This document shows positions 26,074 through 64,000 of a stretch of 64,000 nucleotides of DNA, one piece after another. The DNA is from a virus. Lineage: Duplodnaviria; Heunggongvirae; Uroviricota; Caudoviricetes. Positions within the stretch are counted from its first letter, which is position 1, and every line of letters starts with the position of its first letter. The notes under the pieces were generated by a model, which saw nothing but the letters and a program-made list of their open reading frames with translations, made no database searches and was not told the DNA's origin. A program made the translations under genes and the position numbers. Where the stretch lies: IMG/VR virus record IMGVR_UViG_2565956726_000008, one strand, 5' to 3'.

Positions 26074-27309
26074 CTACGATAACCGCGCATTCAACATGGC
26101 TATCTGTTCGTCGTTCATGTCATCAATCCACATACCGTAAATTTCATACACCATCTGCGCAGTTTCATGCCCCATTTGGCTGGCTATAAATGCCGGGTTC
26201 GCTCCTGCCGTCAACAGCCAGCAGGCAAAAGTATGCCGCGTATGGTACGGATTACGGCGGCGAATACCAGCACGTTTTACTGCTGCATTCCACCTTGCCC
26301 CCAAACTGCTTACCGAGTAATAAGGTTTTTGTTTTCCGTTACACACCCTGGGCATGAAAACAAAATGCAGTTTTTGCTTTTCGGTTCTGCCGTACTCCCG
26401 ATGATAAAAGGTGATTTCGCTTTTGCGATGATGCCCGGTCAGTTTGTATTGCTCCTTCAGTGCTTCAAGAGCAGGCTGCAGTAGTGTTACTGTTCGGATC
26501 CCGGCATTTGTTTTTGGGGGACCGAACATATCAAGTATCGTCAGGTTTCTTCTGACATTCACTATTCCCTTTTCGAGATCCACATCCTCCCACGCCAGAG
26601 CTGCCAGTTCCCCGTGACGAAGTCCTGAGTAAACGGCAAATTTCCACAAGTTCTGGCTCTGTCCTTTTTCACTTTCCATTAATGCATTGAATTCTGTTTT
26701 AGATAACGGATCAGGCTTTATTCTGTTTCGCTGTAATTTTTTTACTCCTTCAAATGGTTTGGTTGATATAAATCCCGACTGATACGCAAAACGCAACAGC
26801 GAACAGAGCAGGGCGATATAGTTATCAACTGTGCGCACGGTTCTTCCTTTTTTGTTGGATCTTGGATTATCCAGGTAAAGCGTTTCTCCATGCAGCAGTT
26901 CATTCCGGTAGTTTAAGATATCGCTATAACGAATATGTGATATCGGGGTACTTTCACAAATTATTATTCTGAGTGTTTTTAATTGTGATTTCGTTTTCTT
27001 CATTGTGTTTGTTGTTAACTCTGTCTCTTTAATTTTTGTCCAGATATCACAAAGCTCTCCGAACGTTTTTATGACTCTCGTTGTCACCATTTTTGCCCCA
27101 GTGCTGGACTGGGGAAAACGTCTTAAATACTCAAATTCACCGGAGTTTATTTCATGAACTATCAGCGCTCTTAAATTTCCGGCCTTTTTAATATTACTGT
27201 TTGTAATCTCCCAGCCTTTTAATGTTTCCCGACATCGTTTTCCTCGAAACATGAACCAGATGCGAATGTATCTACCTCTAATCTCGACACCTGTTGGTAA
27301 TTTAGACAT
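26074..27309 (-). CDS. intR: Rac prophage tyrosine integrase
   Basis: 411 aa; C-terminal R...HxxR...Y catalytic region; adjacent to ttcA as in K-12 Rac. Confidence 0.9.
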   Translation of the reverse strand: MSKLPTGVEIRGRYIRIWFMFRGKRCRETLKGWEITNSNIKKAGNLRALIVHEINSGEFEYLRRFPQSSTGAKMVTTRVIKTFGELCDIWTKIKETELTTNTMKKTKSQLKTLRIIICESTPISHIRYSDILNYRNELLHGETLYLDNPRSNKKGRTVRTVDNYIALLCSLLRFAYQSGFISTKPFEGVKKLQRNRIKPDPLSKTEFNALMESEKGQSQNLWKFAVYSGLRHGELAALAWEDVDLEKGIVNVRRNLTILDMFGPPKTNAGIRTVTLLQPALEALKEQYKLTGHHRKSEITFYHREYGRTEKQKLHFVFMPRVCNGKQKPYYSVSSLGARWNAAVKRAGIRRRNPYHTRHTFACWLLTAGANPAFIASQMGHETAQMVYEIYGMWIDDMNDEQIAMLNARLS

Positions 27310-27310
27310 A

Positions 27311-27526
27311 TCATGAGTCTTTGATAAACTGATTTATCTTTGGATAGTTGTACCAGATAATCCCTCGTTTGCTGTCTGGCTTACCTAAAGGAGATACTCG
27401 TTTGAAGTGGAAGCCCTCCACCCAACAGTTCTGGCGGTATGCTTCAATTTGTCTGGCCCCCAGACCAGTGCGAAGCATCAGGCCGTATTCAACCATCCAC
27501 TCTTCATTAAAGATTACTTGTGCCAT
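27311..27526 (-). CDS. xisR: Rac excisionase
   Basis: 71 aa from [10 protein letters not shown]; immediately upstream of intR. Confidence 0.7.
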
Positions 27527-27604
27527 CGCATCACCTCTGGCAGGCGCCAATGTTAGACTGAAATTGACGCCCGATGTTGATTATTAATAATCAGCTATGA
27601 AGTT

Positions 27605-27886
27605 TTAATTTGAATACAATGCAATTCTCGAGGACTGAAGTTTCTCGCAATTAAAATTTATCAGTTTTACTTTCTGCTCTCTGGAAACGCCTGCTTCTTT
27701 TTTACCTGAGAGCATTTTTTCGCATTCTGATTTCGTTAGTTTAGATTTTGAATATCTTGTCCAGTTAGTAGGAGTGCCACCTTCCTTTTCAATAGTGGCG
27801 GTAATTTTATACATGAACACCTCCATTATTATTTCCAGTGGTTCGTTTATTCCATCTTTCGAGTGCTTCTTTTTCACTTCCACCAT
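27605..27886 (-). CDS. ydaC: Rac small protein YdaC-like
   Basis: ORF overlapping ralR 3' region; gene order as in Rac; true start may be an internal ATG. Confidence 0.5.
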   Translation of the reverse strand: MVEVKKKHSKDGINEPLEIIMEVFMYKITATIEKEGGTPTNWTRYSKSKLTKSECEKMLSGKKEAGVSREQKVKLINFNCEKLQSSRIALYSN

Positions 27887-28001
27887 AACCGGTTCGGGAT
27901 TCGCATCCGTTACACTTCGCTCGGTAATATCCTGAAATGGCTTTCACCGTTACTGATGGACAACCACAAAATGGACATGGTTTAACATTGTCATATCTCA
28001 T
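27807..28001 (-). CDS. ralR: RalR/Lar restriction-alleviation protein (type I toxin, nonspecific DNase)
   Basis: 64 aa from MRYDNVKPCPFCGCPS with two CxxC pairs. Confidence 0.8.
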   Translation of the reverse strand: MRYDNVKPCPFCGCPSVTVKAISGYYRAKCNGCESRTGYGGSEKEALERWNKRTTGNNNGGVHV

Positions 28002-28057
28002 AATTTTTCTCATAAAAAATATTTCAAGTTGGCGGTGCATTACACCGCCAGGCTGAA

Positions 28058-28867
28058 TTATTCCTCTGAATTATCGATTACACTGTATTCCCCGGTTAAT
28101 ACAGAGGAATCTGCAGGATCGATTGTCAGTGGTTCCTTTTCATCCATTGATACTGCACGCTGGATCTCAATTGATACGGGCAGATATTTGAACAGGCGAC
28201 GAATAGCCGTTTTCTTTGCCATTTCTTCCCAGTGAGTTACCCACGGCCCGTTATTACCAGCTTTACTCAGGCTGCGCACCAGCTCAATCTGTTTGCGCGT
28301 CATAACTTCAAACTGAGTACCTCCGTCTTTCAGTCTTGCGACAGCATAGACGTGGGTAACCGGGGCATCTTCGTTTTCTCCCGGGCGGTGTATTAACTTT
28401 TCATCAAGGCCAAATTCGAAGCTAAACTCGTCACCTTCACGGACAACACGGGCTGACAGGCTGGCGATTTGACCAGAACGGCGAGCCAGATCAATCATGC
28501 CGCGATAGCCAATGATTAGCTGAACGTTCTTTTTACCGCTCTTTTCGTTTTTATTACCAAAAGGCAGTAAATATGCATGACCGAGGGCGCTACCTGGCTC
28601 AAGTCCGAGCTGTGAACACTGTACGATCGCACTGACAAAACTCATAGTGTCACAGTTTCCTAACGCCGGAACTTTACGAATTTCTGTAGTGGCGATACGG
28701 ATCATACGTTCAGCCGTCATATGGCGTGGAAGAGCTGCTGCCAGTTGCTCTTTCATTGATGGCTGGTTAATAAAACTAATCACGTCGCTATTTTTAACTG
28801 CTGCTGGTGCACGGTTTCCCTGAGTTTTTTGCAGATCGGCTTTTGCGATTGGTGGTTGCTTAGTCAT
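28058..28867 (-). CDS. recT: recombinase RecT (single-strand annealing protein)
   Basis: 269 aa from MTKQPPIAK; overlaps the recE stop by 8 nt. Confidence 0.9.
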
Positions 28868-31460
28868 TTGCATATTCCTTAGCCCAGCGGGGCAGTGATA
28901 ATGTCTTAATAGCTGGCCATTCATCGGTATTCAGGCAGTCAGACAGGGTTCGCAGATTGCGGTGATATTCCTGTTGACCTGCCAGTTTTGCTTCTTCGCC
29001 CATCATGAAAATTTCAACCGGATAACGTCCGCATTCAATAGTTGTGCTGGCAACCAGAAAAACGAAAGTTGGCTGCACTCCAAACAGTGCTTCATAACCG
29101 TCACTGTAGAATGCATCCTGAACGTGATAGCGGTAGTCGTAATAAGCGGTTTTGAATCGTTGAATATCCGCCGTAGTTTTCACGTCCATGATCCAGTGAA
29201 ATTCAGGGATAATTTTGTCCGGACGGCACCGACACAAAATTCCTGTTTCAGGATCTTCCCAGTAAATTGATGATTCAGCGTGTCCGGCGCTTTCAACAAG
29301 CCATTGCCCCAGCGGCAAAGCCATAACGCTTTGATACATGAGTTCAATTTTCCGGCCTTCTTCCGCAGTGATAACCGTTTTTCCTGTGCTTGCGCATTCC
29401 ATCAGAAACGCTTTCTCTTCTTCTTTTCCGGCGTTTGTACGGCGGTTAAATTCAGGTGCTACGATAAAGCGGTTACTGAATTCTTCCGGTTCAAGTACCC
29501 GGCAGTGGAAAGCAGTTCCTAAATCGAGCGTTTTTGTCTTTGTGGTGTCCACGGGGGCATTTTTACGCCACAAATATAGTGCCGGAGTATCAGCAATGTC
29601 ATCGAGCTGAGACTTACTGATACCGGGACCCGCGTGGTAATTCTCATTCGAAATTCCGTAATAAATACCTGGCTCTATGTCTTCTACGATTACGGGATCT
29701 GCGACTTCGCCAGTTTCATCACTGCAATCGTGATGCGGATCGCTGCCAGCATTCTCATTGTGCGGATGTTCAGCGCCTTCCATTTCCTCCGGATCATTTT
29801 CCTTAGCTTCAACCTGACTCTCTTCATCGAATGTTTCCTGGTATGTTGCGTCGCCCATCACCGCACCACAGTCAGGGCAGTTATCCCCGCCAGTCTGGCC
29901 GCAGGCATTGCAGGCTATTTCCGGTTCCTGTTGCACTACTGGCTCAGGTTGATTCATATCTGGGCTGGTTTTTTCCGTTTCTGGCTGGTTCTGGTACACA
30001 CAATCGCGAGTCTGGATCCCCTTTACCCATTTCGGATCGTTCGGGTCGCTAATTCCGTCAACAAATTCACCACGTGATGCAGCAAGCAATTTATCGGCAT
30101 CGACAGGATTTTTTGATGGAATGTTTTTCCGGGCTTCATGGAGTTCTGCCCGCAGTTCCTGATATTTCGCATCAACAGAATTTACCTGTGACTGAGCATC
30201 CAGCGGCTGCGTGTCCTGATGATGTTCAGTTGCGTCCGGTTCCATTGTTTCAGCCTCTCCCTGTTCAACTGCCGTTGTTCCAGATGGTTGCGGTTTTTCT
30301 TCATCATCCTGTTTTCCTTCTTCTGTTACTCGCTGCGGCATCGGGGCAGAGGAGCGACTGCAGGCAATATCCACGATTTCCGGATCAGGGTTGGCATGAT
30401 CGGTTTCAGTCAGTACTTTGTTCAGATATTCAGTGACGTGCGCGGGGATGACCTCGATCCCAATTGGTGCTTCTTTTACGGACGCAACCACGATGGCGCG
30501 GGAATAATCCAGCCCGCCAGGCATGGTGATGAATTTGTCGCGGAAAACAGAAAAGGGCGGTTTATTTTCAGCGATAATTTCCTCAATGCGTTTAGCGTGT
30601 GCCGGATGAAGGTTATAGATGTCCAGATCCATTGAACGGGCCAGTACGCCAGTGGCTACGTCGCGCGCCAGTGACGTCAGATCGTGTACGAAACCTTCGC
30701 CGCGATCGGTGAGGTTTCCGCCGCCAGCATTAGCACCGGAAGCCGTGCGAGTGATGTGTGAAACACGATTACCCTTCATCCACTCTTTTGTCAGCAGTCC
30801 TCGATCGGTGTAGTCAGCGTTCAGGTATGCTTCGAAAAAAGCAGTTATCAGTCCCAGGTTTGAATTACCAGGATTAGGGAAAACTTTGTCAGTGTCACGA
30901 ACCAGTTTGTGGAGTTCGCGAATTTCCAGCGGGTCGAGCAGGCTGGTTTTGTGGGAAACAGCCAGGGCAGTAACAGCCGGTAGTTCTTCAGCCCGAGCAA
31001 TGTGTAATGCCTGGAGTCCGTCGCGTGAAACGTGCGTTACCGGTTTTTCGCTGCCGTGTTGAGCAAGCCAACGAATGGGCAGTTCCTGGCCAGAAATTGG
31101 GAGTAGCATATTCTCCTCAATCTCAGTCATGTCTTCGCCGTTGACGTTGGTATTGCCTTGATAATGAGCGTTGTCTGGTGCTGCTCCCGGTTTTAGTTCC
31201 CATGTCATGGAGTCTTTGCTGAGTTGATAGCGTTCACTCCAGGTAAAATCGATCTCACCTTCAGCGGGCAGGTCATTAACGACAGGAAAATTCGTGGCAA
31301 CAGCTTTAAAATAGCTGCTCAGTTTTTTACCTGACTTAACGATCAGGTAGTCCAGAGTGGCACAGGTCGATTCAAAATCGTTGCTTGCCCACAGGACGAC
31401 GTCAGGTTCACCGGATGATTTTTTCGCTTTCCGTAACAGGAAGAGTGGTTTTGTGCTCAT
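28860..31460 (-). CDS. recE: exonuclease VIII RecE
   Basis: 866 aa; acidic linker; C-terminal nuclease domain; same length as K-12 RecE. Confidence 0.9.
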
Positions 31461-31561
31461 TGTTTTTTAACCTCAACTCAGATTAAAATTCGTTTTGTTC
31501 AGTGAATGATCTTGCCGGATACACACTGTTCATAGCCTGCGCCATACGCAGGCTATTTCTT

Positions 31562-31837
31562 TCAGATTTCACCTTTTAATTTCATTGCAATTAGAGTTGC
31601 CAGAAATTCGGCTTTTTTTTCTGCGGGCAGATTCTTTCCGATATGCACCAGGCACATTTTTTTGACACCTTCATCAAGTGTTTTTACGTTGCCTGATGGA
31701 CCATCGATATCAACCACAGTGAATGGGGTTTCTTTATTTTCTGTTTTAATTACGTAGCCAATGCGCTTTCCTTCCAGATTCACCTCGTGAACAATGTCAT
31801 CGGTAGTTACAACAGTGGCTTCATAATTGGTAATCAT
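31562..31837 (-). CDS. racC: Rac protein RacC
   Basis: 91 aa from MITNYEATVV; position upstream of recE. Confidence 0.7.
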   Translation of the reverse strand: MITNYEATVVTTDDIVHEVNLEGKRIGYVIKTENKETPFTVVDIDGPSGNVKTLDEGVKKMCLVHIGKNLPAEKKAEFLATLIAMKLKGEI

Positions 31838-31911
31838 GTTTTTCTCCTTAATTAAGGTTGAGCGAATACCTGCCATTTCTGGCATAAATTCAGTTTCGAA
31901 TAGTCAATTAA

Positions 31912-32088
31912 TTAAAGTTCATGTGCCATCTGGTCTTTTTCGGCACAAGCTTCACTGCAATATTTTCTCGGTTCGTCTTTTGATAAAATCCCGTGCATGA
32001 AGTGAAGCATTCTTTCAATAGCTTTGCTTTCTTCAACGTCTTTTTTGCAAAGGTGGTAAGCACATTTTATTTTCTTAGTCATCACCAT
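31912..32088 (-). CDS. ydaE: small zinc-ribbon protein YdaE-like (coordinates approximate)
   Basis: About 58-aa minus-strand ORF ([14 protein letters not shown]...CSEAC...) between racC and kilR; below track size cut-off. Confidence 0.45.
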
Positions 32089-32303
32089 GACTCCGCCTTT
32101 ACAGGTAAACCATCACAACCGAGGAAGACTTTAATCATGCGGTCAGTAATGCATGTTTTTGTGGTCAGGTTACGAATATATAGTTTTCGCTTTTTAATAT
32201 TGTTTGCCGAGGCAATATATGTCCGGCCTTCATGAAGAACATAATCGCCAGGAGTCACACACTGACGTGGTATTTCATCAGTTCCGAAGTGATGTGCAAT
32301 CAT
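32082..32303 (-). CDS. kilR: FtsZ-inhibiting killing protein KilR
   Basis: 73 aa from [15 protein letters not shown]; matches KilR as recalled. Confidence 0.8.
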
Positions 32304-32744
32304 AATTATCTCCATTTTTACAAATGAATTTTGTTGATGCGGTGCCTGGTGCCTCCAGGTGACTGCAACCAGTTAACAATTACAGTCGGCTTTCCCACCC
32401 AAACCAATAAGGACTAACATGACTTTTAACTGTGCCACGTGCGCTTAGCCGCATTCACCGCATCACAAAATTCACTTTAAAAAGGGCGGACATCAGCCGA
32501 ACTTCAAGAAAAAAACTGATGCCGCCAGGACTACACACAGCAATGTCGTTATTTACAACCGGAGGCGCACTCCCACCATTTAAATTTAACAGACAAGACC
32601 GACTCTTTATGGATATCGGAAATGCGCCTTCGTGTTGTGCCCGGTTTTATTTCACCACCTCCGGGCTTCGGTGGTCTCGGCTATACCCCTACAGCGAGAG
32701 CTTGTGTTAACATTTCAATACCCTTACAGTTGAGAGTTATTGAT

Positions 32745-33233
32745 ATGTTGGATGTATTTACTCCATTGTTGAAACTTTTTGCTAACGAGCCACTCGAAAG
32801 ACTTATGTATACGATTATCATTTTTGGTCTCACTCTCTGGCTGATACCGAAAGAGTTTGCTGTCGCATTCAATGCTTATACTGAAATACCCTGGCTCTTT
32901 CAGATTATCGTTTTTGCCTTTTCTTTCGTGGTCGCTATTTCCTTCTCAAGATTGCGAGCACATATTCAAAAGCATTATTCATTGCTACCAGAGCAACGAG
33001 TATTGCTTCGTTTATCTGAGAAAGAAATCGCTGTATTTAAAGATTTCCTTAAAACAGGAAATCTTATTATCACTTCTCCTTGCCGTAACCCGGTTATGAA
33101 AAAATTAGAACGGAAGGGCATCATTCAACATCAGAGTGATAGCGCAAACTGTTCTTATTATCTCGTCACCGAAAAATACTCCCACTTTATGAAGTTATTC
33201 TGGAACAGCAGGAGCAGGCGTTTTAATCGTTAG
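32745..33233 (+). CDS. sieB: superinfection exclusion protein B
   Basis: 162 aa from MLDVFTPLLKLF with two TM segments; track ORF extends upstream from a non-ATG start. Confidence 0.8.
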   Translation: MLDVFTPLLKLFANEPLERLMYTIIIFGLTLWLIPKEFAVAFNAYTEIPWLFQIIVFAFSFVVAISFSRLRAHIQKHYSLLPEQRVLLRLSEKEIAVFKDFLKTGNLIITSPCRNPVMKKLERKGIIQHQSDSANCSYYLVTEKYSHFMKLFWNSRSRRFNR

Positions 33234-33234
33234 C

Positions 33235-33387
33235 TTACTGTGTGCTTCTCCAACCATCGTCGTGCGCCAGCTTCGGTTTTAAACGTTTTGCTTTTGGTAT
33301 ACGTCATGGCAGTGAACGTTCCATCCTGGTTGGGGAACACGCCGCACACCAGGGATTCGTTATTGCCGAGGTCGATTTTTTGCATTT
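33235..33387 (-). CDS. small protein YdaG-like (approximate, uncertain reading)
   Basis: Minus-strand ORF beginning MQKIDLGN between sieB and racR; I could not read this stretch consistently. Confidence 0.25.
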
Positions 33388-33395
33388 TTCGCACC

Positions 33396-33578
33396 TCACA
33401 TCTTGTTGTTGCGGATAGAGGCTTCTGCCTGCCAGAGATCCCAGTCGTTGCTGCGTAGAGCCTGTACAGCCTGGCTGTAAGTGATATCGCAACAATCCAT
33501 CAAATACTGAACTACTTCGTAATGCACCATCTTATCTCTCCCCTTAACGCCGGGTGGCGGAACTGAAACCTGCTGCAC
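33396..33578 (-). CDS. small protein YdaF-like
   Basis: 60-aa track ORF (likely shorter from MVHYEVVQYL) in the sieB-racR interval. Confidence 0.35.
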   Translation of the reverse strand: MQQVSVPPPGVKGRDKMVHYEVVQYLMDCCDITYSQAVQALRSNDWDLWQAEASIRNNKM

Positions 33579-33820
33579 TGCAAAATCTGAACCCTGCCGT
33601 CATGTTCATACGCCTCGGGCTGGCTACTTAACCCCTGACCACTGCCTGGTAACTCGAAGTATTGCCCTGCGTTCTGTGGGGCGGGGTGGGTTGGTAGGTA
33701 TATGATGTACTTTGTGTTCATTGATGTAAAGTACTTTAAGTACATTTTGTGTGTAAAAAAATGAGATGGGATAAAGTGAAGCACAAACCCGGAGGGGGGA
33801 GCTACCGGATTTATGCTGGT

Positions 33821-34240
33821 TTAAGAGGCTTTTTGTTTTTTCTTTCGTGCTAACTCTTCGTAAATTGCATTGTACTTCTGTTTTTTCTCCTCAAGAGTTT
33901 TTAAAAGTTCATCTGTCTCACTGTCAGGGAGCTCGTCCAGAAGGTCAATGATGATTTTTTGTCTTGGATTTAACTCCTGATAGAAACGTACCTGTCCACT
34001 TTCTTCTGTATCCTCTCCCAAAAGATAGGTTGGTGTTGTTCCAATGAGTGTTGCTAATTCCCTTAATTTCTCTCGGCGAGGAATTGTTTCGCCATTAAAC
34101 CATTTGCTAACCGCTTTTGGTGTTAATTTCATTCGACGGGCAATTTCTGCCTGCCTTCCATGTTGTTCATAACCAGCGTTTTCACAGGCTAGCGCAAGCC
34201 TACTGGCGAACTCTTTACGCGCTTTATCTTCATGAACCAT
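33821..34240 (-). CDS. racR: Rac prophage repressor RacR
   Basis: 139 aa with N-terminal HTH; divergent from ydaS. Confidence 0.8.
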   Translation of the reverse strand: MVHEDKARKEFASRLALACENAGYEQHGRQAEIARRMKLTPKAVSKWFNGETIPRREKLRELATLIGTTPTYLLGEDTEESGQVRFYQELNPRQKIIIDLLDELPDSETDELLKTLEEKKQKYNAIYEELARKKKQKAS

Positions 34241-34319
34241 AAGTTCAATGATATTCGCTCTTGAATGTACTGTCAGTTCTGTTATAGCATGTACTCAAAG
34301 TTCACATTGTGAGGGTGAT

Positions 34320-34574
34320 ATGAACCAGAAAACACTTGAAGATGTAATCAAAACTGTTCGCGTTTCTGTTGTGGCCGACGTTTGTGGTGTCAGCCAAAGA
34401 GCAATCTACAAATGGATGGATAACGGAAAATTGCCTCGCACAGAATATACCGGCGAAACAAATTACGCTGAAAAAATCGCTCATGCATCAAACGGATTAT
34501 TTTCTGCCGATGTAATTTTAACTATTGGCAGAAATAAAACTACTACGAAAAAGCTGATGGGAGTTGATTCATGA
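34320..34574 (+). CDS. ydaS: Cro-like HTH protein YdaS (toxic when derepressed)
   Basis: 84 aa from MNQKTLED with GAGGG RBS; HTH GVSQRAIYKW. Confidence 0.75.
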   Translation: MNQKTLEDVIKTVRVSVVADVCGVSQRAIYKWMDNGKLPRTEYTGETNYAEKIAHASNGLFSADVILTIGRNKTTTKKLMGVDS

Positions 34575-34993
34575 AAATCAAGCATGAGCACATCGAGTCA
34601 GTGTTGTTAGCCCTGGCAGCCGAAAAAGGGCAGGCATGGGTAGCCAATGCCATTACTGAAGAATATCTGCGCCAGGGGGGCGGCGAATTGCCCCTGGTAC
34701 CAGGCAAGGACTGGAATAATCAGCAGAACATCTATCACCGTTGGTTAAAAGGTGAAACGGAAGCGCAAAGGGAAAAAATTCAGAAACTGATCCCTGCAAT
34801 TCTGGCAATCCTTCCGCGCGAGCTGCGTCACCGACTCTGCATCTTCGATACCCTGGAACGCCGTGCATTACTGGCGGCGCAGGAAGCGTTAAGTACGGCA
34901 ATTGATGCGCATGATGATGCAGTCCAGGCCGTTTACCGGAAAGCGCATTTCAGCGGCGGCGGGTCTTCCGACGATTCTGTCATTGTTCATTAA
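34571..34993 (+). CDS. ydaT: YdaT toxin-like protein
   Basis: 140 aa; start overlaps ydaS stop. Confidence 0.75.
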   Translation: MKIKHEHIESVLLALAAEKGQAWVANAITEEYLRQGGGELPLVPGKDWNNQQNIYHRWLKGETEAQREKIQKLIPAILAILPRELRHRLCIFDTLERRALLAAQEALSTAIDAHDDAVQAVYRKAHFSGGGSSDDSVIVH

Positions 34994-35863: not shown

Positions 35864-35869
35864 CTGACC

Positions 35870-53707: not shown

Positions 53708-53727
53708 ATAAATCATTTATTACAACA

Positions 53728-54674: not shown

Positions 54675-55814
54675 ATGGCTGGAAATACCCTGACCGGGTT
54701 GATCCCGACTATTTATACCGCCCTGGATGTTGTATCCCGTGAGCAGGTAGGTTTTATCCCTGCGGTAGCAAAAAACGCAAAAGCTGACGCCGCAGCAAAA
54801 GATCAGACGGTAACCGCGCCAGTTGCGCCTGAGGCGAAAACCGAAGATATCGTACCGGGGCCGTCAGCTCCGAATACCGGTGATCAAAATATTGGCACTG
54901 TTGATGTAAAAATTACTAAATCCAAAATGGCACCGGTTAAATGGAATGGTGAAGAACAACTGGCTCTTGGCCCTTCAGGGACTTACAACACCATTCTGGC
55001 TGATCAGTTCAAGCAGGCTTTTCGCGCCCTTGCAAACGAGGTTGAGGCTGATCTTGGTGCGTTGTATTTCGGTGCTTCCCGCGCCGTGGGAACCGCAGGG
55101 ACAACGCCGTTTGGTGTTAAAGATGATCTTTCTGATGCTGCTCTGGCTCGTCAGGTTCTGGAGGATAACGGCGCACCGACAACCGATCTGCAGATGGTGC
55201 TTGGCTCCACTGCCATTGCTAATTTGCGCGGAAAACAGTCTGTATTGTTTAAAGTGAATGAATCCGGCACTGAACAGCTACTGCGTGAGGGCGTGTTGGG
55301 GCGTCTGGAGGGATTCAATATTCACAGTTCGGCAGGTGTGAAACGAGCGCCAAAGGTTGCTGCAACTGGTTATCTCGTGAATGGAGAGAAAAAAGAAGGC
55401 GATGTTCTTATTTCCATTGATACTGGTTCGGGGAGTATTTCTGCAGGTCAGATTGTTACGTTCGCTGGTGATCCGAATCAGTATGTTGTGGCAGCAGCGA
55501 CCAGCAATCTGATTACTCTTGCAGCGCCCGGACTGCGTCAGGATCTGGCCGATGATACTGCCATCACAGTTGTTGGGGCCTTTACTGCAAATATGGCGTT
55601 TGATCGCAACGCGTTTCTGCTGGCATCCCGTACTCCGGCAATGCCGGAAGGTGGCGATAATGCTGATGATGTAATGAATGTTACGGACCCGATTTCAGGG
55701 ATTACGTTCCAGATTGCACTGTATCGTCAGTATCGCCAGGTGCGCTATGAAGTTGGACTGGCATGGGGTGTTTCATCAGTGAAGCCGGCACATGGTTGTC
55801 TGATTCTTGGTTAA
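54675..55814 (+). CDS. major capsid protein (prophage B)
   Basis: 379 aa from MAGNTLTGLIP; followed by terminator hairpin. Confidence 0.7.
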   Translation: MAGNTLTGLIPTIYTALDVVSREQVGFIPAVAKNAKADAAAKDQTVTAPVAPEAKTEDIVPGPSAPNTGDQNIGTVDVKITKSKMAPVKWNGEEQLALGPSGTYNTILADQFKQAFRALANEVEADLGALYFGASRAVGTAGTTPFGVKDDLSDAALARQVLEDNGAPTTDLQMVLGSTAIANLRGKQSVLFKVNESGTEQLLREGVLGRLEGFNIHSSAGVKRAPKVAATGYLVNGEKKEGDVLISIDTGSGSISAGQIVTFAGDPNQYVVAAATSNLITLAAPGLRQDLADDTAITVVGAFTANMAFDRNAFLLASRTPAMPEGGDNADDVMNVTDPISGITFQIALYRQYRQVRYEVGLAWGVSSVKPAHGCLILG

Positions 55815-55823
55815 ACATTCAAA

Positions 55824-55845
55824 CGGGGCTTCGGCCCCATTTTTA
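55824..55845 (+). terminator. intrinsic terminator after capsid gene
   Basis: ggggc-ttcg-gcccc followed by ATTTTT. Confidence 0.5.
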
Positions 55846-55856
55846 ATGGGGGGCAT

Positions 55857-56033
55857 ATGGCCGGATTAACTAAAGAGCAAAGAGCACAGCGTGAAGCCGC
55901 ACAAAAAACGCAAATTGAGTTAGTGGTTATGGTGACCGATTATCAGATGTTTCCCGGCGCACCAACTATCGCTAATGTTCATCCTGATGAAGTTGACAAC
56001 TGGAAGGCTATGGGCTGGAAAACTCAGGAGTAA
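55857..56033 (+). CDS. small hypothetical protein (58 aa) between capsid and connector genes
   Basis: ATG after G-rich RBS; below ORF-track size cut-off. Confidence 0.3.
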   Translation: MAGLTKEQRAQREAAQKTQIELVVMVTDYQMFPGAPTIANVHPDEVDNWKAMGWKTQE

Positions 56034-56036
56034 CAC

Positions 56037-56432
56037 ATGATCACTTACGTGACCTGTGATGACGTTGATAATGCGTTTGGGAACGCCTGGACGAGTGAGA
56101 ACGCTAAAAATAAAGCTGTTTTAATGGCTAATGCCTGGCTTAATGGCTTCAACCTGAAAATTAACCCATCCCGTATTCCGGAAGAGGTAAAACTTGCGGG
56201 AGCATATGCAGCCAGAATTGCCTCATTCGGTAAGTTGTTTCAGCAGAAAAATGATTCTGGCGTTGTTATCAGTAAAGCCGTGTCGGCTGACGGGGTCAGT
56301 GTATCGAAATCATTTTCTGAGTTGCCAGCAAACAGCACTGCATTGCTTGAACCCGATTTACAGCTTGCGATAGCACTGCTGAAACAGTACGGACTTAGTC
56401 GCTCACAAGTCAGGGTTGTGAGGGGGGGATAA
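56037..56432 (+). CDS. head-tail connector protein
   Basis: 131 aa; first of four coupled small structural genes. Confidence 0.5.
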   Translation: MITYVTCDDVDNAFGNAWTSENAKNKAVLMANAWLNGFNLKINPSRIPEEVKLAGAYAARIASFGKLFQQKNDSGVVISKAVSADGVSVSKSFSELPANSTALLEPDLQLAIALLKQYGLSRSQVRVVRGG

Positions 56433-56815
56433 TGGGGCTTCGTGAAGAGATTCAGTCAGAGGTTGCCGCTGCTTTTGATGAGGATTTAGCGGACGCCGTG
56501 AGTGATTTTTCTGGTTCTTACGTTACGCACCGGCACTGGGATCCTGTGACGGAAACTGGCGGCGAATCCACCGCAATCTATACCGGGCGAGGCGTGTTGA
56601 CACGTTATAAGCTGGGCAGAATTGATGGGATTAATATTTTGCATGGTGACCTTAAATTAACCGCTCTGGTATGCGAGGTTACGGATAAACCAGCTGTCGA
56701 CCATATTATTGAGATTTATGATCCTGTATCAAGGCAGTTACAACGATACGAGGTAATTACAGCAAGTGTAGATCCTTCCGCATCAGTTTACTCTATCCAG
56801 TTAAGGAGAGCGTAA
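56432..56815 (+). CDS. head-tail joining protein
   Basis: 127 aa; ATG overlaps previous stop. Confidence 0.45.
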   Translation: MGLREEIQSEVAAAFDEDLADAVSDFSGSYVTHRHWDPVTETGGESTAIYTGRGVLTRYKLGRIDGINILHGDLKLTALVCEVTDKPAVDHIIEIYDPVSRQLQRYEVITASVDPSASVYSIQLRRA

Positions 56816-57196
56816 ATGGCAAAGGCATGGGATATAGAACCGTCAATATTTGCCGGGATGATTGAGGAAGATGTAGGGCTGAAGATTCGCTACATCGCTA
56901 TTCAGATTCTTACTGCTATTGATATTGCTGCTCCGGTTGATACCGGACGTTTCAGAAATAACAACCTGGTGTCGTTACAGCATCCCGATTTTGGTATATC
57001 TGATAACGTGGATCCGAACGGTACGATTGCTGTTCAGCGTGGGATCGGGGTTATTTCGAAAGCTGCAAATTACGGGGTTATTTATATCCAGAATAACCTT
57101 CCTTATGCAGAGGCTCTTGAAAACGGTCATTCACAACAAGCGCCAACTGGCGTGTATGCCAACGCTTTTCATGGTGTTTTACAGGCTTACAAATGA
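56816..57196 (+). CDS. HK97 gp10-like tail component protein
   Basis: 126 aa with PVDTGRFR motif. Confidence 0.5.
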   Translation: MAKAWDIEPSIFAGMIEEDVGLKIRYIAIQILTAIDIAAPVDTGRFRNNNLVSLQHPDFGISDNVDPNGTIAVQRGIGVISKAANYGVIYIQNNLPYAEALENGHSQQAPTGVYANAFHGVLQAYK

Positions 57197-57585
57197 AGTT
57201 TACTGAAATCAGAAATACGGTTATTTCCAGAATGACGGCACAGACGATTATTGATGGAAAAGACGTATTGTATCCGAACGGGCCAACGTTCGATCCTTCC
57301 GGTAAGTTAATCTGGGCGCGGTTAAGTAATATTCCCGGGCAAGCTGGAGTTAATGAAATTGGCGCGGGGCCGGTTGTTTATCGCACGGGGATAATCATTA
57401 TTCAGTTATTTGTCCCCGCAGGTTCTGGTTCAAAACTCATTACTGAGACAGCCGATAAATTGCGGGAACTGTTTGAGTTTCAGGATGACGATCGTCTCAG
57501 TTACCAGGCTGTTTCCTCAATAGCCGTCGGCGAAAAGAATGGCTGGTTCCAGCTTAATCTTCAAATTCCATATCGCGCGCTCTAG
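57193..57585 (+). CDS. tail terminator-like protein
   Basis: 130 aa; position before major tail gene. Confidence 0.45.
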   Translation: MKFTEIRNTVISRMTAQTIIDGKDVLYPNGPTFDPSGKLIWARLSNIPGQAGVNEIGAGPVVYRTGIIIIQLFVPAGSGSKLITETADKLRELFEFQDDDRLSYQAVSSIAVGEKNGWFQLNLQIPYRAL

Positions 57586-57611
57586 CGCAATTAATGACAT
57601 AGGAGGCTCCT

Positions 57612-58574
57612 GTGAGTTCAGGTGCAAAGGTTATCTCGGCATTTATCCGGGAGACAGTTGCAGGCACTACGCCAGCAAGTGGTGACTGGAGTTTATTAAA
57701 ACGCACAAGCTGGGGAGTAAAACCCACCCAGAATAAAGGCGAAAATAATGAGATTGGTGGCTCCCGGATGGCTCAGGGGGCGACGCCTGGCACTGTGGAT
57801 GTCGGCGGTGATGTTGGTACCAAATTTCGCTGGGGTCAACATGATGATTTTCTTGCATCCTGTTTCGGCGCGGAATGGTCAGGCGATTCTCTGACAATGG
57901 GGAATGAGCGAATAACATTTTCTCTGGCGACCTATGCGTCCGATGTCGGAATTGCCTCTGTCGTCAGAGGAGCGCAGGTTGGCTCATGGAAAATGCAGAT
58001 CCCTAACGACGGCGATATTACAGCGACCGTAACCTTTGCCGGGCTGGGCTGGGAATCAAAGGCCGATGATACGAATTTTATCAAAGGCGAACCTGTGGAT
58101 AGTGCAGGAAAGTTACGCTATTCGTTTAAGGCGGTTTCAGCAGTAAGCCTGAATGGTGTTGCCGGAGGTAACGGTTTTTGTATCGACAGTTTTGATATTC
58201 AGTTCGATAACAAACTCCAGACACAGCGTTGTATCGGGACTGGCTCGCCTTATGCAGGAGCAAATATTCCGACTACTTTTACACCGTCCGGTACGGTGAC
58301 GCTTTCATGGTCTAAAGCCGCGTGGGAAATCTGGAGTAAAACACTGACTGGAGAAACAGTTCCGTTCAGCTTCACGCTTTCGAATGGAGAGGGGGCATAC
58401 ACTTTCAGTTTCCCGAAGGTTCAGGTGTCAGGTGAATGGCCTGATGGGGGTAATACTGACATTATCCAGGTTCAATTGAGCATTACCGCAGCAGATGAAG
58501 CACCTACGATAACCAGAAAAAAATGCTCCCCGACTGCCGTGATCGCAAAAGCCAGTGCTGATGCGATTAGTTGA
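57612..58574 (+). CDS. major tail protein (prophage B)
   Basis: 320 aa, beta-rich; position before chaperone G/GT. Confidence 0.7.
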   Translation: MSSGAKVISAFIRETVAGTTPASGDWSLLKRTSWGVKPTQNKGENNEIGGSRMAQGATPGTVDVGGDVGTKFRWGQHDDFLASCFGAEWSGDSLTMGNERITFSLATYASDVGIASVVRGAQVGSWKMQIPNDGDITATVTFAGLGWESKADDTNFIKGEPVDSAGKLRYSFKAVSAVSLNGVAGGNGFCIDSFDIQFDNKLQTQRCIGTGSPYAGANIPTTFTPSGTVTLSWSKAAWEIWSKTLTGETVPFSFTLSNGEGAYTFSFPKVQVSGEWPDGGNTDIIQVQLSITAADEAPTITRKKCSPTAVIAKASADAIS

Positions 58575-58622
58575 TTTTCCGTTATTCCCCCTGTGGTACT
58601 GCACTACAGGGGGACGCATTGA

Positions 58623-59084
58623 ATGAGGTTATGGATGTTTATTCTTAATCAGAAAATTATCATCGGTGGAGAACGCTGGTTTACGCCAATGAAGGACTTA
58701 AAACCTATAGACGGGTTAAAACTGTTGGTGGCAAGCAGCGATAACGATCAGTATCGCTCCCGTAATGCATTAATCCGTCGTCACATTGAGAAAATGGATG
58801 CCAGTTTGCACGTCGGAACGAAGGAGTTTGATATTTCAAAGGTTTCCGAGGTAGATTCTGTTGATGATTTACTCATTGATAATGCTGCTCGTTATCTGCT
58901 GAAAGACTGGAAAGGGGTTGGTGAACTGGTTAATGGTGCTGAGGTTGCACTGGAATATACGCCAGAACGAGGGATCGCGCTGCTTAAGCAGAATCCAGAG
59001 TTGTACTGGCAGATCCTTGCAGAAGCAGCCAGCATCGCCCAGGGTAAAGAGCAGCAGAAGCAGGATACGATAAAAAAGCCATAG
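58623..59084 (+). CDS. tail assembly chaperone G
   Basis: 153 aa ending ...DTIKKP; slippery A_AAA_AAG 7 nt before stop. Confidence 0.7.
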   Translation: MRLWMFILNQKIIIGGERWFTPMKDLKPIDGLKLLVASSDNDQYRSRNALIRRHIEKMDASLHVGTKEFDISKVSEVDSVDDLLIDNAARYLLKDWKGVGELVNGAEVALEYTPERGIALLKQNPELYWQILAEAASIAQGKEQQKQDTIKKP

Positions 59085-59392
59085 CCGCCCAGCGGTGGTT
59101 ATCGGAGTTCGGGGGAGAAAGGGGGGAAAAGGCAAGATGGAAGCGAGAAAAACTCAGGTTGCCACCGATACCGGAACCAGAAATAGACCCGGTGCTTAAG
59201 GAATTGTTGTACGCCTATTCGGTAATATCCCGTGCCCGACGTTATGCTGGAATGACCGGGGTGCCTTTGCCTTTATCTCTGACAGAGATAAATGAATATT
59301 TAGCCACTCATCCGGTATTGATTGAGCGCGATGAGTTTGAAGCAGTGATCTTTGCACTGGATGACCAGTATTTTCAGGAGCAGTGTGTGTAG
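59048..59392 (+). CDS. T-domain reading frame of G-T fusion reached by -1 frameshift
   Basis: -1 frame is open from ~59048 through 59392 and overlaps the G 3' end; lambda G/GT analogy. Confidence 0.55.
   Translation, partial: RAAEAGYDKKAIAAQRWLSEFGGERGEKARWKREKLRLPPIPEPEIDPVLKELLYAYSVISRARRYAGMTGVPLPLSLTEINEYLATHPVLIERDEFEAVIFALDDQYFQEQCV
59072..59078 (+). other. programmed -1 ribosomal frameshift heptamer A_AAA_AAG
   Basis: Heptamer sits in the G frame as A AAA AAG, the same slippery sequence as in dnaX. Confidence 0.5.
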
Positions 59393-59555
59393 TTGTTAAT
59401 TACGTACACTCTGTTACAGAGATGTGATGGTGTCTTTAATTAAATCGATGATGCTCCTGGAGAAAAGCATTGCGTGGCCTCGTAATCGCTATATCTACTA
59501 TTATGTCGCCTGAAACCCACTTCGGTGGGCTTTTTGTTGTCTGGAGTTTTAATAA

Positions 59556-62500
59556 ATGGCAGAGCAAACCTCGCGTCTCGCAATAATTATTGATAGCACT
59601 GGAGCAAAAAATAATGCTGACAATCTGACCTCCTCATTAGTCAAAATGACGCAGGCCGGGGAAACTGCTGCAAATAGCGCAGGGAAAGTGACTAAGGCAA
59701 CAGAAGATGAGAAGAACGCGCTCGCAAAATTAAAAGCAGCTATTGATCCAGTTGGTGCCGCAATTGATACTGTCGGTCGACGCTATTCTGAATTAAAGAA
59801 ATTTTTCGATAAAGGGCTTATTGATAAAGAAGAATATGAATTTCTTGTCCGTAAACTTAATGAAACCACAGAGGAATTGAGCGGGGTTGCGCAAGCGCAG
59901 AGAGAAGCCGAGAAGGCCGGAAAACTTGCTGCCGCCCAGCAGGAAGCGCAGACTCAGGCCTTTCAAAGAATGCTGGACAAGATCGACCCTCTGGCTGCGG
60001 CGCTAAGAAATCTTGAACAACAGCAGGATGAACTTAATGCTGCGTTTGCATCCGGGAAAATAAATGGTTCTCAGTTTGAGAATTATAGCCGAAAAATACA
60101 GGAAACACGGCGAGAGCTTACCGGAGAGGCTCAGGCAGAGCGAGAAGCAGCAAAAGCGCATGATGAACAGGTTGCTGCTTTGCAACGTCTGATTGCTCAA
60201 CTTGACCCTGTCGGAACTGCTTTTAATCGTCTGGTAGAACAACAGAAACAGCTCAATGAAGCAAAAGCTAAGGGGATGCTCTCTCCTGAAATGTATGAGG
60301 AACTTTCTGGAAAACTTCGTGCTATGCGGAGTGAGCTTGAGGTTACTCAATCTCAATTAAGCAAAACCGGAATGTCGGCAAAACAAACGGCTTTTGCTAT
60401 GCGCATGTTGCCTGCACAAATGACGGATATTGTTGTTGGGTTGTCCACTGGTCAGTCGCCTTTTATGGTGTTAATGCAGCAGGGCGGCCAGCTAAAAGAT
60501 ATGTTCGGTGGGATTGGCCCGGCGATCAAAGGTGTTGGTTCTTATGTGCTGGGATTAATTAATCCTTTTACCCTGGCCGCAGCAGCCGTTGGCGTCTTAG
60601 GGCTGGCTTACTATAAAGGCTCTCAGGAGCAGGACGAATTTAATAAGTCTCTTATTCTTACCGGAAATCAGTTGGGGACAACCAGCGGGCAATTGGCCGA
60701 TATAGTTCAACGTGCCGGGAATGCGGCTGATTCGACAACTGGCGCTGCGGCGGCAGTATTAAACCAGCTTGTGCGTTCGGGAAAGGTAGCGAGCAGTTCG
60801 CTGGAGCAAGTGACGACAGCGATAGTAAAAACGAGCGAAGTAACAGGAATATCAACCGAACAACTGGTTAATGACTTCAATGAAATTGCAAAGGATCCTG
60901 TCAGTGCCATATCAAAACTTAATGATCAGTACCATTTTCTGACAATTGCGACTTATAACCAGATTAAGGCGCTACAGGATGAAGGGAACCAGCAGGAGGC
61001 CGCCCGCATTGCGACAGAAGCATACTCATCCTCAATGATCCAGCGCACCAACCAGATTAAAGAAAATCTTGGTTATCTTGAGACTGCATGGAAAGCTGTC
61101 GCAGACTCCGCAAAATGGGCATGGGATTCCATGCTGGATATTGGCCGTGAGGCCTCCCTTGATCAAAAAATCTCAGATGTTCTCCGTCAAATTGATGAAA
61201 TAGAAAAAAATACCCGACCCGGAGTTTTCGGGTTAGGTGGCATTGGAGATGGCGGAGCTCAAAATAAAAGGCTGGCACGATTAAAGCAGCAATTGGGCGT
61301 ACTTCAAGCAGAAAAAATTGCTCAGGACGTACTAAATTCATCAATAAACGATTACAACAAGCGACAACAGGAAGGAATTGAACTCAGACAGAGAGCAGAT
61401 GCCTTTTCAAAACAATATCAGACCCGGGAGCAGCAGAGAGCTAGTGAACTTGCAAAACTGGAAAAACTAAAGAGTCAGTATTCAAAGGAAGAATATAATA
61501 ATCTTATCGCTCAAATAAATGAGCGTTATAAAGATCCAAAGCAACCAAAGGCGAAAGGTTATTCGGATGATGCTGCCCAACGAATGATTGATCATCTGAA
61601 TCAACAGAATGCGTTACTAAGTTCACAAACTGAATTAACCGTTAAATTAAGTTCCTCTGAACAGGAACTGGTTAAGTGGCGTCAGCAGATTGCCGACCTG
61701 GAGTCACGACCGTCATCGAAATTAACCAAGGATCAGAAATCGCTTCTCTTACACCGGGAAGAAATAACCGCGTTGATGGAGAAAAATGTTGCGATTGAAA
61801 AAAATAACAGGCTAATCAAGGAATCCGCCGAAATAGCTGCATGGCGTGATTCATTGCAGGCTTCGATTGATAATCGTCAACAGGGGTATGATATTCAGAT
61901 TGCTGGTTATGGGGTTGGCGATAAAAATCAGCAACGCCAGCAGGAATTACTGCGGATTGAACGTGAATATAACAATCAGCGTCTGCAACTTGAACGTGAC
62001 TATGCAGATAAATCCCGTGGGATGTCAAATCATGTTTTTCAGGAGAAAATGCAGGCTCTGAATGATGCTCTGGAACGAGAAAAAGAAATTGTCAGACAGA
62101 AAAACGAGCAGCTCGATATTCAGGCAGGAGACTGGGTTAGTGGTGCCTCCCAGGGATTCAATAACTGGCTGGATGACACTAAGGATATCAGTGAGCAGAT
62201 AAAATCAACCACGACTCAGATGTTTGATGGAATGACCGATGCGCTGGGTGATTTTGTCACGACAGGCAAAGCAAATTTTCGTTCTTTCGCTACTTCCGTG
62301 ATTTCGGATCTTAGTCGAATAGCATTAAAGGCTTCAATTACTGGGATTTTCGACAGCATTAGTAACAGTTCTTCTGGGGGGATTTTAGGAACTATCGGGA
62401 GTGCTATTAGTAAATTTATTCCGAATGCAAAGGGCGGTGTTTATGAGTCTCCGTCATTGAACACGTATTCGAACGGTATTTATGATTCCCCGCAATTTTT

Positions 62501-62789
62501 TGCTTTTGCAAGAGGGGCTGGTGTTTTTGGTGAGGCTGGTCCGGAAGCCATTATGCCATTAACACGAACTTCCGATGGTTCTCTTGGTGTCAGAGCTGTT
62601 AATAGTAAAAGTGGTAATGGAGGCGGAGATATTACCTATGCCCCTGTATACCAAATCACTATTCAAAATGACGGCCAGAATGGAGAGATTGGCCCTCAGG
62701 CAATAAAAGCACTTATGGGGATGGTTGATCAGCGGGTGCAGGGCAATCTGTTAAATATGCGACGTGATGGGGGAATGTTAAGTGGCTAA
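59556..62789 (+). CDS. tail tape measure protein (prophage B)
   Basis: 1077 aa, alpha-helical, Gln/Ala-rich; followed directly by M. Confidence 0.85.
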
Positions 62790-63120
62790 TACGGAAGAAT
62801 TTCACTGGTTACCAGAGGATGGAATGAAAACAGAAAATAAACCATCGATAAAAACTGTAAGATTTGGCGATGGTTATGAGCAACGAAGTCCAAATGGACT
62901 TAATCATTCTCTGCGCGTTTTCACCTGTGATTTCAAAGTTGAGGCGAATGAACGTGATTCATTTGAAAAATTTTTAGCCCGGCATGAAGGCTATAAATCT
63001 TTTTTTTGGCGCCCGCCGGGTATTAACAGAAAAATCAGAGTGGTGTGTCGAACGTGGTCAGCGACAGAACATATCACCTATACCGATTTTTCGTGTCAGT
63101 TTGACGAAGTGGTGATCTGA
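62782..63120 (+). CDS. minor tail protein M (lambda gpM-like)
   Basis: 112 aa; FGDGYEQR motif. Confidence 0.85.
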
Positions 63121-63818
63121 TGCAGGACATACAACAGGAAACACTGAATGAATGCATTCGTGCGGAGCAGTCGGCCAGCGTGGTGCTCTGGGAAATCGAC
63201 CTGACCGAGGTAGGCGGGGATCGCTACTTTTTCTGTAATGAGCAGAACGAAAAAGGTGAGTCTGTCACCTGGCAGAGTCGGCAGTATCAGGCCTATCCCA
63301 TTCAGGGGAGTGGATTTGAGATGAACGGCAAGGGCAGTGCTGCCCGTCCGACACTGGCGGTCTCTAACCTGCACGGCATGATCACCGGGATGGCGGAAGA
63401 TCTGCAGAGTCTGGTCGGCGGAACGGTGGTCCGGCGTAAGGTTTACGCCCGCTTTCTGGATGCGGTGAACTTCGTCAACGGAAACAGCGAAGCCGATCCG
63501 GAGCAGGAGGTGATCAGCCGCTGGCGCATCGAGCAGTGCAGCGAACTGAGCGCGGTCAGTGCCTCTTTTGTACTGTCCACGCCGACTGAAACGGATGGCG
63601 CTGTTTTTCCGGGACGTATCATGCTGGCCAACACCTGCACCTGGACCTATCGCGGCGATGAGTGCGGTTATAGCGGTCCGGCGGTCGCGGATGAATATGA
63701 CCAGCCGACGTCCGATATCACGAAGGATAAATGCAGCAAATGCCTGAGTGGCTGTAAGTTTCGCAATAATGTCGGCAACTTTGGCAGCTTCCTTTCCATT
63801 AACAAACTTTCGCAGTAA
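63120..63818 (+). CDS. minor tail protein L (lambda gpL-like)
   Basis: 232 aa, collinear with prophage A L and lambda L. Confidence 0.85.
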   Translation: MQDIQQETLNECIRAEQSASVVLWEIDLTEVGGDRYFFCNEQNEKGESVTWQSRQYQAYPIQGSGFEMNGKGSAARPTLAVSNLHGMITGMAEDLQSLVGGTVVRRKVYARFLDAVNFVNGNSEADPEQEVISRWRIEQCSELSAVSASFVLSTPTETDGAVFPGRIMLANTCTWTYRGDECGYSGPAVADEYDQPTSDITKDKCSKCLSGCKFRNNVGNFGSFLSINKLSQ

Positions 63819-63823
63819 ATCCC

Positions 63824-64000
63824 ATGACAGAGACAGAATCAGCGATTCTGGCGCACGCCCGGCGATGTGCGCCAGCGGAGTCGTGCGGCTTCGTGGTGAG
63901 AACGCCGGAGGAGGAAAGATATTTTCCCTGCGTGAATATCTCCGGTGAGCCGGAGGAGTATTTCCGGATGTCGCCGGAGGACTGGCTGAGTGCAGAAATG
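63824..64000 (+). CDS. tail assembly protein K, 3' end outside window
   Basis: Starts MTETESAILAHARRCAPAESCGFVV as in lambda K; runs off window. Confidence 0.75.
   Translation, partial: MTETESAILAHARRCAPAESCGFVVRTPEEERYFPCVNISGEPEEYFRMSPEDWLSAEM

Follow-up and report, generated by a model that had tools for sequence, protein, structure and literature searches.

What does the Rac-type prophage in a 64,000-nt stretch of tailed-phage DNA (IMG/VR virus record IMGVR_UViG_2565956726_000008; this whole stretch is hereafter the window) tell us about the defective Rac prophage of E. coli K-12? An initial annotation, made from the letters alone, had described it as a complete Rac, unlike the K-12 copy, and as possibly inducible and ancestor-like. 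The prophage is visible from its attL core to position 64000, and its right end lies beyond the window. Every item listed in the initial annotation is present at or near the coordinates that it gave, and we consider it likely that these 38 kb are the left part of a full-length prophage of a temperate lambdoid siphovirus belonging to the Rac lineage. The assignment to the Rac type is borne out by IntR, XisR, RecT, RalR, YdaV, TrkG and RzoR, which are 100% identical in amino acid (aa) sequence to their K-12 counterparts, and by the late remnants of K-12, which are found in order.

The alignment with K-12 Rac that had been proposed for mapping deletion endpoints was run by blastn, with positions 1410900-1436000 of NC_000913.3 (segment L003) against the window. 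Four colinear blocks were retrieved:

K-12 L003 3-8719, window 24976-33696, 99.2% identity
K-12 L003 9779-12302, window 34565-37088, 99.3% identity
K-12 L003 12301-14731, window 44742-47172, 99.9% identity
K-12 L003 14730-16489, window 58733-60490, 98.6% identity

As can be seen, the K-12 late remnants rzpR/rzoR, trkG, ynaK, ydaY and ynaA/tmpR map in order on full-length genes, at 98.6-99.9%. Three blocks are missing in K-12:

37089-44741 (7.65 kb): the rest of ydaW, DUF977, a BstA-like gene, hok, DUF1971, nin-type genes, Q, S, R and the first ~7 Rz codons; the loss fuses ydaW to codon ~7 of Rz at the microhomology TA
47173-58732 (11.56 kb), from inside ParB to inside G: the rest of ParB through most of G; microhomology AA
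60491 to inside lom, beyond the window (~8.5 kb): the rest of the tape measure, M, L, K, I, J and the start of lom; microhomology CA

All three K-12 junctions are simple fusions at a 2-bp microhomology, so that three clean deletions could be mapped. K-12 Rac is thus a phage of the same type that has undergone three illegitimate deletions, and these account for its orphan genes ydaW, rzpR, ynaK, ydaY and ynaA.

The immunity pair, the lom/fibre region and the right end are not shared with K-12. The term ancestor-like thus holds for the structure, given the three clean deletions, but not literally; with a different immunity pair and right end, the present copy is therefore a sister of the K-12 progenitor and not the progenitor itself. 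As such, it provides a base-by-base template of K-12 Rac decay. Relative to K-12, the chromosomal flank (zntB-dbpA-ttcA) is ~2.1% different, whereas the 26-32 kb (int-recE arm) and 44.7-47.2 kb (rz-trkG-ynaK) regions differ by only ~0.1%. The contrast of 0.1% versus 2.1% fits poorly with Rac as an ancient, vertically inherited fossil, unless recombination is frequent. A speculative reading is that K-12 Rac may be a recent decay product of a still-circulating phage and not a 4.5-million-year-old fossil.

The flank of the prophage is E. coli chromosome, with dbpA (23585-24958, plus strand) and ttcA (25087-26022, minus strand) followed by intR; no tRNA gene was found in the window. The attachment site is as follows:

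25973-25998: attL core, the 26-bp sequence TTGTTCAGGTTGTATTGTTCTTTCTT, identical to attR, inside the 5′ end of ttcA

Beyond this core, similarity to attR is imperfect up to 26015. The core coincides with the left boundary of the K-12 feature “cryptic prophage Rac” and recurs at attR of K-12 (in the ttcC pseudogene) and of the closest complete genome, TUM1226 (NZ_CP135719.1), between sitA and uspF. The duplicated core in the 5′ end of ttcA that marks a Rac-type prophage is thus seen at attL in the window and at attR in TUM1226 and K-12; the far-end copy, which the initial annotation had proposed to look for, stands at the expected place in both genomes, outside the window. On the left side the same annotation had placed the core in 26023-26073, which was off target: the prophage starts ~100 bp to the left of 26074, a position that is correctly the intR stop codon (intR, 26074-27309, minus strand). 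In TUM1226, attL and attR are 54.27 kb apart with an IS5 and ~53.07 kb without it, with sitABCD inside. The attP layout of this phage type is ...GCCCTTAC-TTGTTCAGGTTGTATTGTTCTTTCTT-TGTAATTTG... Integration would be carried out by IntR at the 26-bp core, and ttcA would receive a substitute 5′ end from the phage.

The integrity of the prophage was checked by mapping the 53 genes annotated in TUM1226 onto the window. All of them are open and of equal length there, with at most 3 aa differences in prophage genes. The claim of completeness, unlike K-12, is upheld as far as the window extends: no annotated gene is interrupted, and the terL, portal, coat, terS and tape measure profiles are matched over their full length. 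The packaging, head and tail genes are as follows:

48613-55814, plus strand: packaging/head module
48613-48822, plus strand: 69-aa open reading frame (ORF), positions 157-218 of 319 of the phrog_309 small-terminase profile, conserved in all copies
starting in the 48826 region of the head genes, plus strand: terS, 364 aa, phrog_51 1-261/261
plus strand: terL, 433 aa, Terminase_6N 3-213/215 and Terminase_6C 1-154/155
plus strand: portal, 468 aa, DUF4055, phrog_145 7-481/493
in 48826-55814, plus strand: Mu-F-like minor head protein and scaffold-like DUF6651 protein
plus strand: P22-type major capsid protein, 379 aa, phrog_283 2-383/385
55857 onward, plus strand: connectors, namely a 58-aa protein, head-tail adaptor, head closure, neck/tail completion and tail terminator
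57612-58574, plus strand: tail tube (named connectors plus tail tube span 56037-58574)
58623-59084, plus strand: tail chaperone G, 153 aa; K-12 ydaY is the 3′ part of G
to 59392, plus strand: tail chaperone GT, 256 aa, reached by a -1 frameshift
59556-62789, plus strand: tape measure, 1077 aa, three tape-measure domains; K-12 ynaA/tmpR is its first ~311 codons
62782-63120, plus strand: gpM-like protein
63120-63818, plus strand: gpL-like protein
63824 onward, plus strand: gpK-like C40 peptidase, cut by the window end

Lesions in terminase or portal had been named as grounds for rejecting completeness; terminase, portal and capsid genes (head genes 48826-55814) are free of them, judging by their full-length profile matches. 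TerL belongs to the T4-like large subunit family, with both domains complete, and is a headful-type terminase. The tail is of the lambda type, and its module is as the initial annotation had it, with the -1 frameshift of G/GT at 59072-59078 and the 1077-aa tape measure at 59556-62789. The slippery heptamer A AAA AAG occupies 59072-59078, the G frame ends ...ACG ATA AAA AAG CCA TAG, and the -1 frame is open to 59392; on these signals, we take the predicted frameshift to be real.

Truncated J or tail-fibre genes downstream had been named as a second ground for rejection. Past the point where the window ends, the TUM1226 copy has open genes for K, I, J (1159 aa), Lom and two fibres of 791 and 346 aa, J and the fibres being intact. 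The split tail fibre annotated in TUM1226 (a PGAP partial pseudogene plus a gene) was considered as a lesion and rejected, the pieces being in frame and forming one 791-aa ORF (segment L004, 6183-8558) that matches phrog_1419 over 1-793/793; the split is an annotation artefact.

We searched 5,426 complete E. coli genomes by megablast. Six genomes, TUM1226 among them, match 24000-46000 at 99.8% with one extra IS5, and 191 genomes contain at least 80% of this interval. The 44000-64000 interval was matched at 100.0%, and at least 80% of it is present in 694 of the 5426 genomes (13%). Against TUM1226, 46 mismatches fall in the 4.2 kb of flank (21818-25972; 1.1%), the last of them at 25852, shortly ahead of the att core, whereas the 38 kb of prophage (25973-64000) differ by 11 substitutions and two 1-bp indels, both intergenic (0.03%). 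The prophage is thus ~30-fold less diverged than the flanks between the two lineages, and the switch is at attL. Such a pattern fits one circulating phage that would have been acquired site-specifically by different lineages.

An exact match of right end, core and intR side was also sought in IMG/VR, and the attP junction was found in six contigs. One of them, from a metagenome, is 50,494 bp long and reads sitABCD-attP-intR...sieB at 98.4-99.6% identity. This contig covers ~50.5 of 53.1 kb and is therefore not a closed circle. From the divergence pattern and the junctions, we infer that the prophage may be able to move as a phage now, or was so very recently.

In TUM1226, the sitABCD operon for iron/manganese transport is part of the element enclosed by the att sites, where it lies between the fibre/dinI end and attR (L004, 12038-15889), and in the metagenome contig (L010, 1611-5661) it is joined via attP to intR; sitABCD thus appears to travel with the phage. 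trkG, and sitABCD in the relatives, are thus cargo of a phage that would recently have passed from one E. coli lineage to another. The IS5 of TUM1226 and its relatives lies 32 bp past the 3′ end of the BstA-like gene. TUM1226 also has an IS200C between zntB and ynaL (L005, 24219-24921) that is absent from window positions 23317-23326. Another carrier, NZ_CP163451.1 (L006), is a mosaic: it has DUF1187 for rcbA, ydaU is exchanged for another gene, and ynaK is annotated as partial.

Several observations weigh against a full-length, functional prophage. The window ends in gene K, so that J and the fibres of this strain lie outside the sequence read. The attL-attR distance in the relatives, ~53.1 kb owing to sitABCD, is large for a T=7-type head. 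attP junctions are not proof of free circles; tandem lysogens, as reported for KingRac, can give rise to them too. GenBank records ON470614, ON470616 and ON470590 (vB_EcoS-666R9 and relatives) are 98.9-99.9% identical to the present prophage, yet no plaque-purified phage is found among the phage-collection records at least 99% identical to it: the ON4705xx-ON4706xx records are PHASTER “intact” predictions from draft genomes of carbapenemase-producing isolates. Finally, Pfam finds helix-turn-helix (HTH) families only, and no cleavage domain, in the 139-aa repressor, and the LexA box CTGT-N8-ACAG does not occur in the window, where one-mismatch sites are at chance frequency. No LexA box was found near the dinI-side genes of TUM1226 either.

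Assignment to the SOS-inducible class, which calls for an S24 autocleavage repressor or a LexA-boxed antirepressor, was accordingly rejected. With no visible SOS route to induction, inducibility by mitomycin C, the treatment that the initial annotation had suggested, seems doubtful. Liu et al. report that mitomycin C does not induce the excision of Rac and Sp10, and that excision responds, by way of XisR, to RpoS and H-NS (PMC4632033); on KingRac, mitomycin C has only a weak inducing effect (PMC6731689). Since no SOS link is seen here and Rac/Sp10 excision is mitomycin-insensitive, a mitomycin test might be negative even for a live phage.

The strongest competitor is that the prophage is gene-complete and yet non-viable here, a cryptic element that persists because of the cargo it carries (trkG, sitABCD, defence genes), the putative cause being a lesion beyond position 64000, faulty regulation or a genome whose length would prevent packaging with terminal redundancy. 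The right end outside the window, the ~53.1 kb between att sites in relatives, the lack of a visible SOS link, the failure of mitomycin C to induce Rac/Sp10 excision (PMC4632033) and the frameshifted DinI-like gene and IS5 of the closest complete genomes would all agree with it. It has to contend, however, with 38 kb in which no gene is interrupted, a divergence between lineages of 0.03% in the prophage versus 1.1% in the flanks, attP junctions in public contigs and the absence of the IS5 from the window. Excessive length was rejected as a strong argument, as phages with related large terminases have genomes of 40-59 kb. On balance, we regard a cryptic state as unlikely, and a full-length temperate prophage as the better account. 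That the element is a mosaic sharing only the integration site and the left 8 kb with Rac (like Sp10 and CP-933R), and so uninformative on the past of K-12 Rac, is most improbable: lambdoid phages are mosaic, the immunity pair and fibre region differ from K-12 and other carriers exchange rcbA and ydaU, but rzpR/rzoR, trkG, ynaK, ydaY and ynaA align in K-12 order at 98.6-99.9%, and each K-12 fusion point corresponds to one clean breakpoint pair here.

The early arm and the immunity region contain the following features:

26074-27309, minus strand: intR, integrase, 0/411 aa differences from K-12
27311-27526, minus strand: xisR, excisionase, 0/71 aa differences from K-12
27605-28001, minus strand: rcbA and ralR
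27630-27808, plus strand: RalA antitoxin small RNA (Rfam RF02694, 225 bits)
28058-28867, minus strand: recT, recombination
28860-31460, minus strand: recE, recombination
31562-33530: racC, ydaE and kilR (minus strand), sieB (32745-33233, plus strand), ydaF and a ydaG-like gene (minus strand)
33698-34574: immunity region, repressor and cro-like gene
33821-34240, minus strand: HTH repressor, 139 aa
34320-34574, plus strand: cro-like HTH protein, 84 aa
34571-36616, plus strand: ydaT, ydaU (replication organiser-like) and ydaV (DnaC-like ATPase)
36639-38503, plus strand: full-length DUF1627 gene (K-12 ydaW is its 5′ part), DUF977 (Ren-like) and a 167-aa protein of unknown function

The left arm had been said to follow Rac order from intR through ydaV, and it does so apart from the immunity pair: the ralR-recT-recE-racC-kilR-sieB arm is colinear with K-12 at 99.2% over 8.7 kb, with 0-4 aa changes per protein. 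The K-12 IntR and XisR proteins were shown to excise Rac (PMC4632033), and the excision module here is identical to this experimentally active one. In place of the RacR/YdaS pair that typifies Rac immunity, the prophage has unrelated sequence (33697-34564 is not homologous to racR/ydaS, and K-12 L003 8720-9778 is without a match in blastn); the prophage here is an immunity variant of the Rac lineage. Two copies of a 15-nt motif, ATGTACT-N5-GTTC, lie between the repressor and cro genes (34265-34279 and 34289-34303, spaced 24 bp) and a further one to the left of the repressor gene (33705-33719), where a related 23-nt direct repeat follows 24 bp on (33724-33746). The presence of these putative operators on both sides of the repressor fits an OR/OL layout.

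Between the early arm and the head genes lie the antiterminator, lysis and cargo genes:

38624-39397, minus strand: KilA-N protein, 257 aa, BstA-like (Pfam KilA-N 4e-27; PADLOC BstA 3e-21)
39752-39922: sok RNA match ahead of hok
39920-40045: hok, truncated, 41 aa
40128-40493, minus strand: DUF1971 (TehB-type) gene
41337-42871, plus strand: DUF1367, YbcO-type nuclease and Q-like genes, including promoter/terminator-like sites
42223-42765, plus strand: Q-like antiterminator (DUF1133, E 1e-107)
42987-43556, plus strand: 189-aa protein with two hydrophobic segments, in the Q-S moron position
43904-44245, plus strand: holin of the lambda S family, starting MKM
44249-44725, plus strand: GH24 endolysin
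44722-45186, plus strand: Rz
44942-45127, plus strand: Rz1, 61 aa, embedded in Rz, with a lipobox, identical to K-12 RzoR
45324-46781, plus strand: trkG potassium transporter, cargo in the late operon, aa-identical to K-12 TrkG

The Q-like antiterminator and the intact S-R-Rz/Rz1 lysis genes that the initial annotation had listed are both in place, the former at 42223-42765 with DUF1133 and Phage_antitermQ matches (the latter only marginal, 27.4 bits against a cut-off of 26), the latter as a four-gene cassette at 43904-45186. At the end of Q lies a promoter-like site (42700-42729), followed by a hairpin resembling a terminator (42846-42871); the two fit a pR′/tR′ arrangement, these being consensus matches only. 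Other terminator-like hairpins of the late operon are at 43780-43801 (before the holin gene), 46868-46891 (after trkG) and 59513-59537 (between the T frame and the tape measure gene); presumably they are read through by Q-modified polymerase, and the first two may insulate cargo genes. The extra cargo reported earlier is likewise present, as a hok remnant (39920-40045), the DUF1971 gene that had been called a cupin gene (40128-40493) and the Q-S membrane protein (42987-43556). Along the map, the cargo comprises RalR/RalA, KilR, SieB, the BstA-like protein, the hok/sok remnant, DUF1971, the Q-S protein, TrkG and a ParB-glycosyltransferase pair. The BstA-like protein, which the initial annotation did not list, matches phrog_6287 BstA over its full length (2.7e-89) and combines a KilA-N N-terminus with a BstA-type C-terminal domain; its gene (38624-39397) is likely a prophage-borne, putative defence gene.

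Just 5′ of the terminase genes, at 46919-48635, are two further genes:

46919-47710, plus strand: ParB_N protein, 263 aa; K-12 ynaK is its first ~85 codons
ending at 48635, plus strand: TET-associated-glycosyltransferase-family protein, 310 aa (PF20691 3e-35; phrog_842)

The first is the full-length ynaK-like gene noted earlier (46919-47710, 263 aa). No TET/5-hydroxymethylcytosine genes are nearby. Homologues at 40-47% identity were found in phages of Lactobacillus, Nocardia, Vibrio and Haloarcula. For some (Lactobacillus phi jlb1 and Ld25A, Haloarcula HHTV-2), the annotation puts a ParB-like gene at or next to the matching region, and several of the matches are close to where the genome record starts. 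Among solved structures, the glycosyltransferase-family protein had no match and the ParB_N protein matched only Spo0J/ParB N-terminal domains. It is a speculative and rather improbable idea that the pair is a conserved module that could glycosylate or packaging-mark phage DNA without the 5-hydroxymethylcytosine pathway.

The left part of the window (1-21817) contains the right part of a second, unrelated tailed prophage. Among its genes are those for a tape measure of 780 aa (7676-10018), a tail tip protein of 1620 aa (14236-19098) and a fibre of 598 aa (19582-21378). Its boundary falls in dgcM, 52 nt into the 5′ end of that gene, which leaves only ~4.2 kb to the Rac-type prophage. Its best public matches reach at most 96.9% (strains 2017C-4173W12 and M1/5), and its fibre DNA at 20865-21356 is 80% identical to the fibre of the TUM1226 Rac-type prophage.

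How does this prophage compare with the Rac elements in print? As cited in PMC6379469, Lawrence et al. 2001 had already noted that the Rac of EDL933 is intact and that of K-12 incomplete. KingRac (Frazao et al. 2019, PMC6731689) is a complete 46,834-bp Rac-related prophage that makes particles and replaces K-12 Rac in the mouse gut, and it transduces neighbouring DNA (PMC12251178; bioRxiv 10.64898/2026.05.27.728231). Like the element described here, KingRac is a complete Rac-related prophage at ttcA; its particles are tailed, and it is transferred in the mouse gut. By published description, the two differ in size, with 46,834 bp for KingRac against ~53.1 kb between att sites for the present phage type. 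The Rac-like prophages of O157:H7, Sp10 (Sakai) and CP-933R (EDL933), are also integrated at ttcA; they are excision-proficient, and they are reported to have kept the replication machinery and, after excision, to be capable of infecting other strains, K-12 among them (PMC4632033). Only their leftmost ~8 kb is 99% identical to K-12 Rac (PMC4632033), whereas the present copy is colinear with all K-12 remnants. Escherichia phage Rac-SA53 (KU052037, 52,291 bp) shares intR, recET and ydaU-type early genes, with 41% of 26074-46900 matched at 91.8%; it is absent among the matches listed for the late region (46900-64000), so that its late module looks different.

Active Rac-like prophages are thus already described (PMC6731689, PMC12251178, PMC4632033). 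Complete, even active Rac-type prophages are common and published; the present element is of an already known kind, with copies 99.9-100% identical to it in public data, and leaves current understanding unchanged. Its nearest kin is the prophage of TUM1226 (536.6-590.9 kb), one of those found in ST405-type and other E. coli, which is 99.85-99.98% identical, with gene order and cargo alike; TUM1226 and its five relatives differ in the IS5 at window position 38589-38592, absent here, and in chromosomal background. With K-12 Rac (NC_000913.3 1411899-1434958) the present copy shares the ttcA att site, IntR/XisR, the recET-kilR-sieB arm, ydaTUV, Rz1, trkG and the 5′ parts of ydaW, ynaK and tmpR, the shared sequence being 98.6-99.9% identical at the nucleotide level. 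K-12 Rac differs in its racR/ydaS pair, the IS5 in lomR, the three missing blocks and a right end consisting of stfR/tfaR/pinR/ynaE, where relatives of the present copy carry other fibres, dinI and sitABCD.

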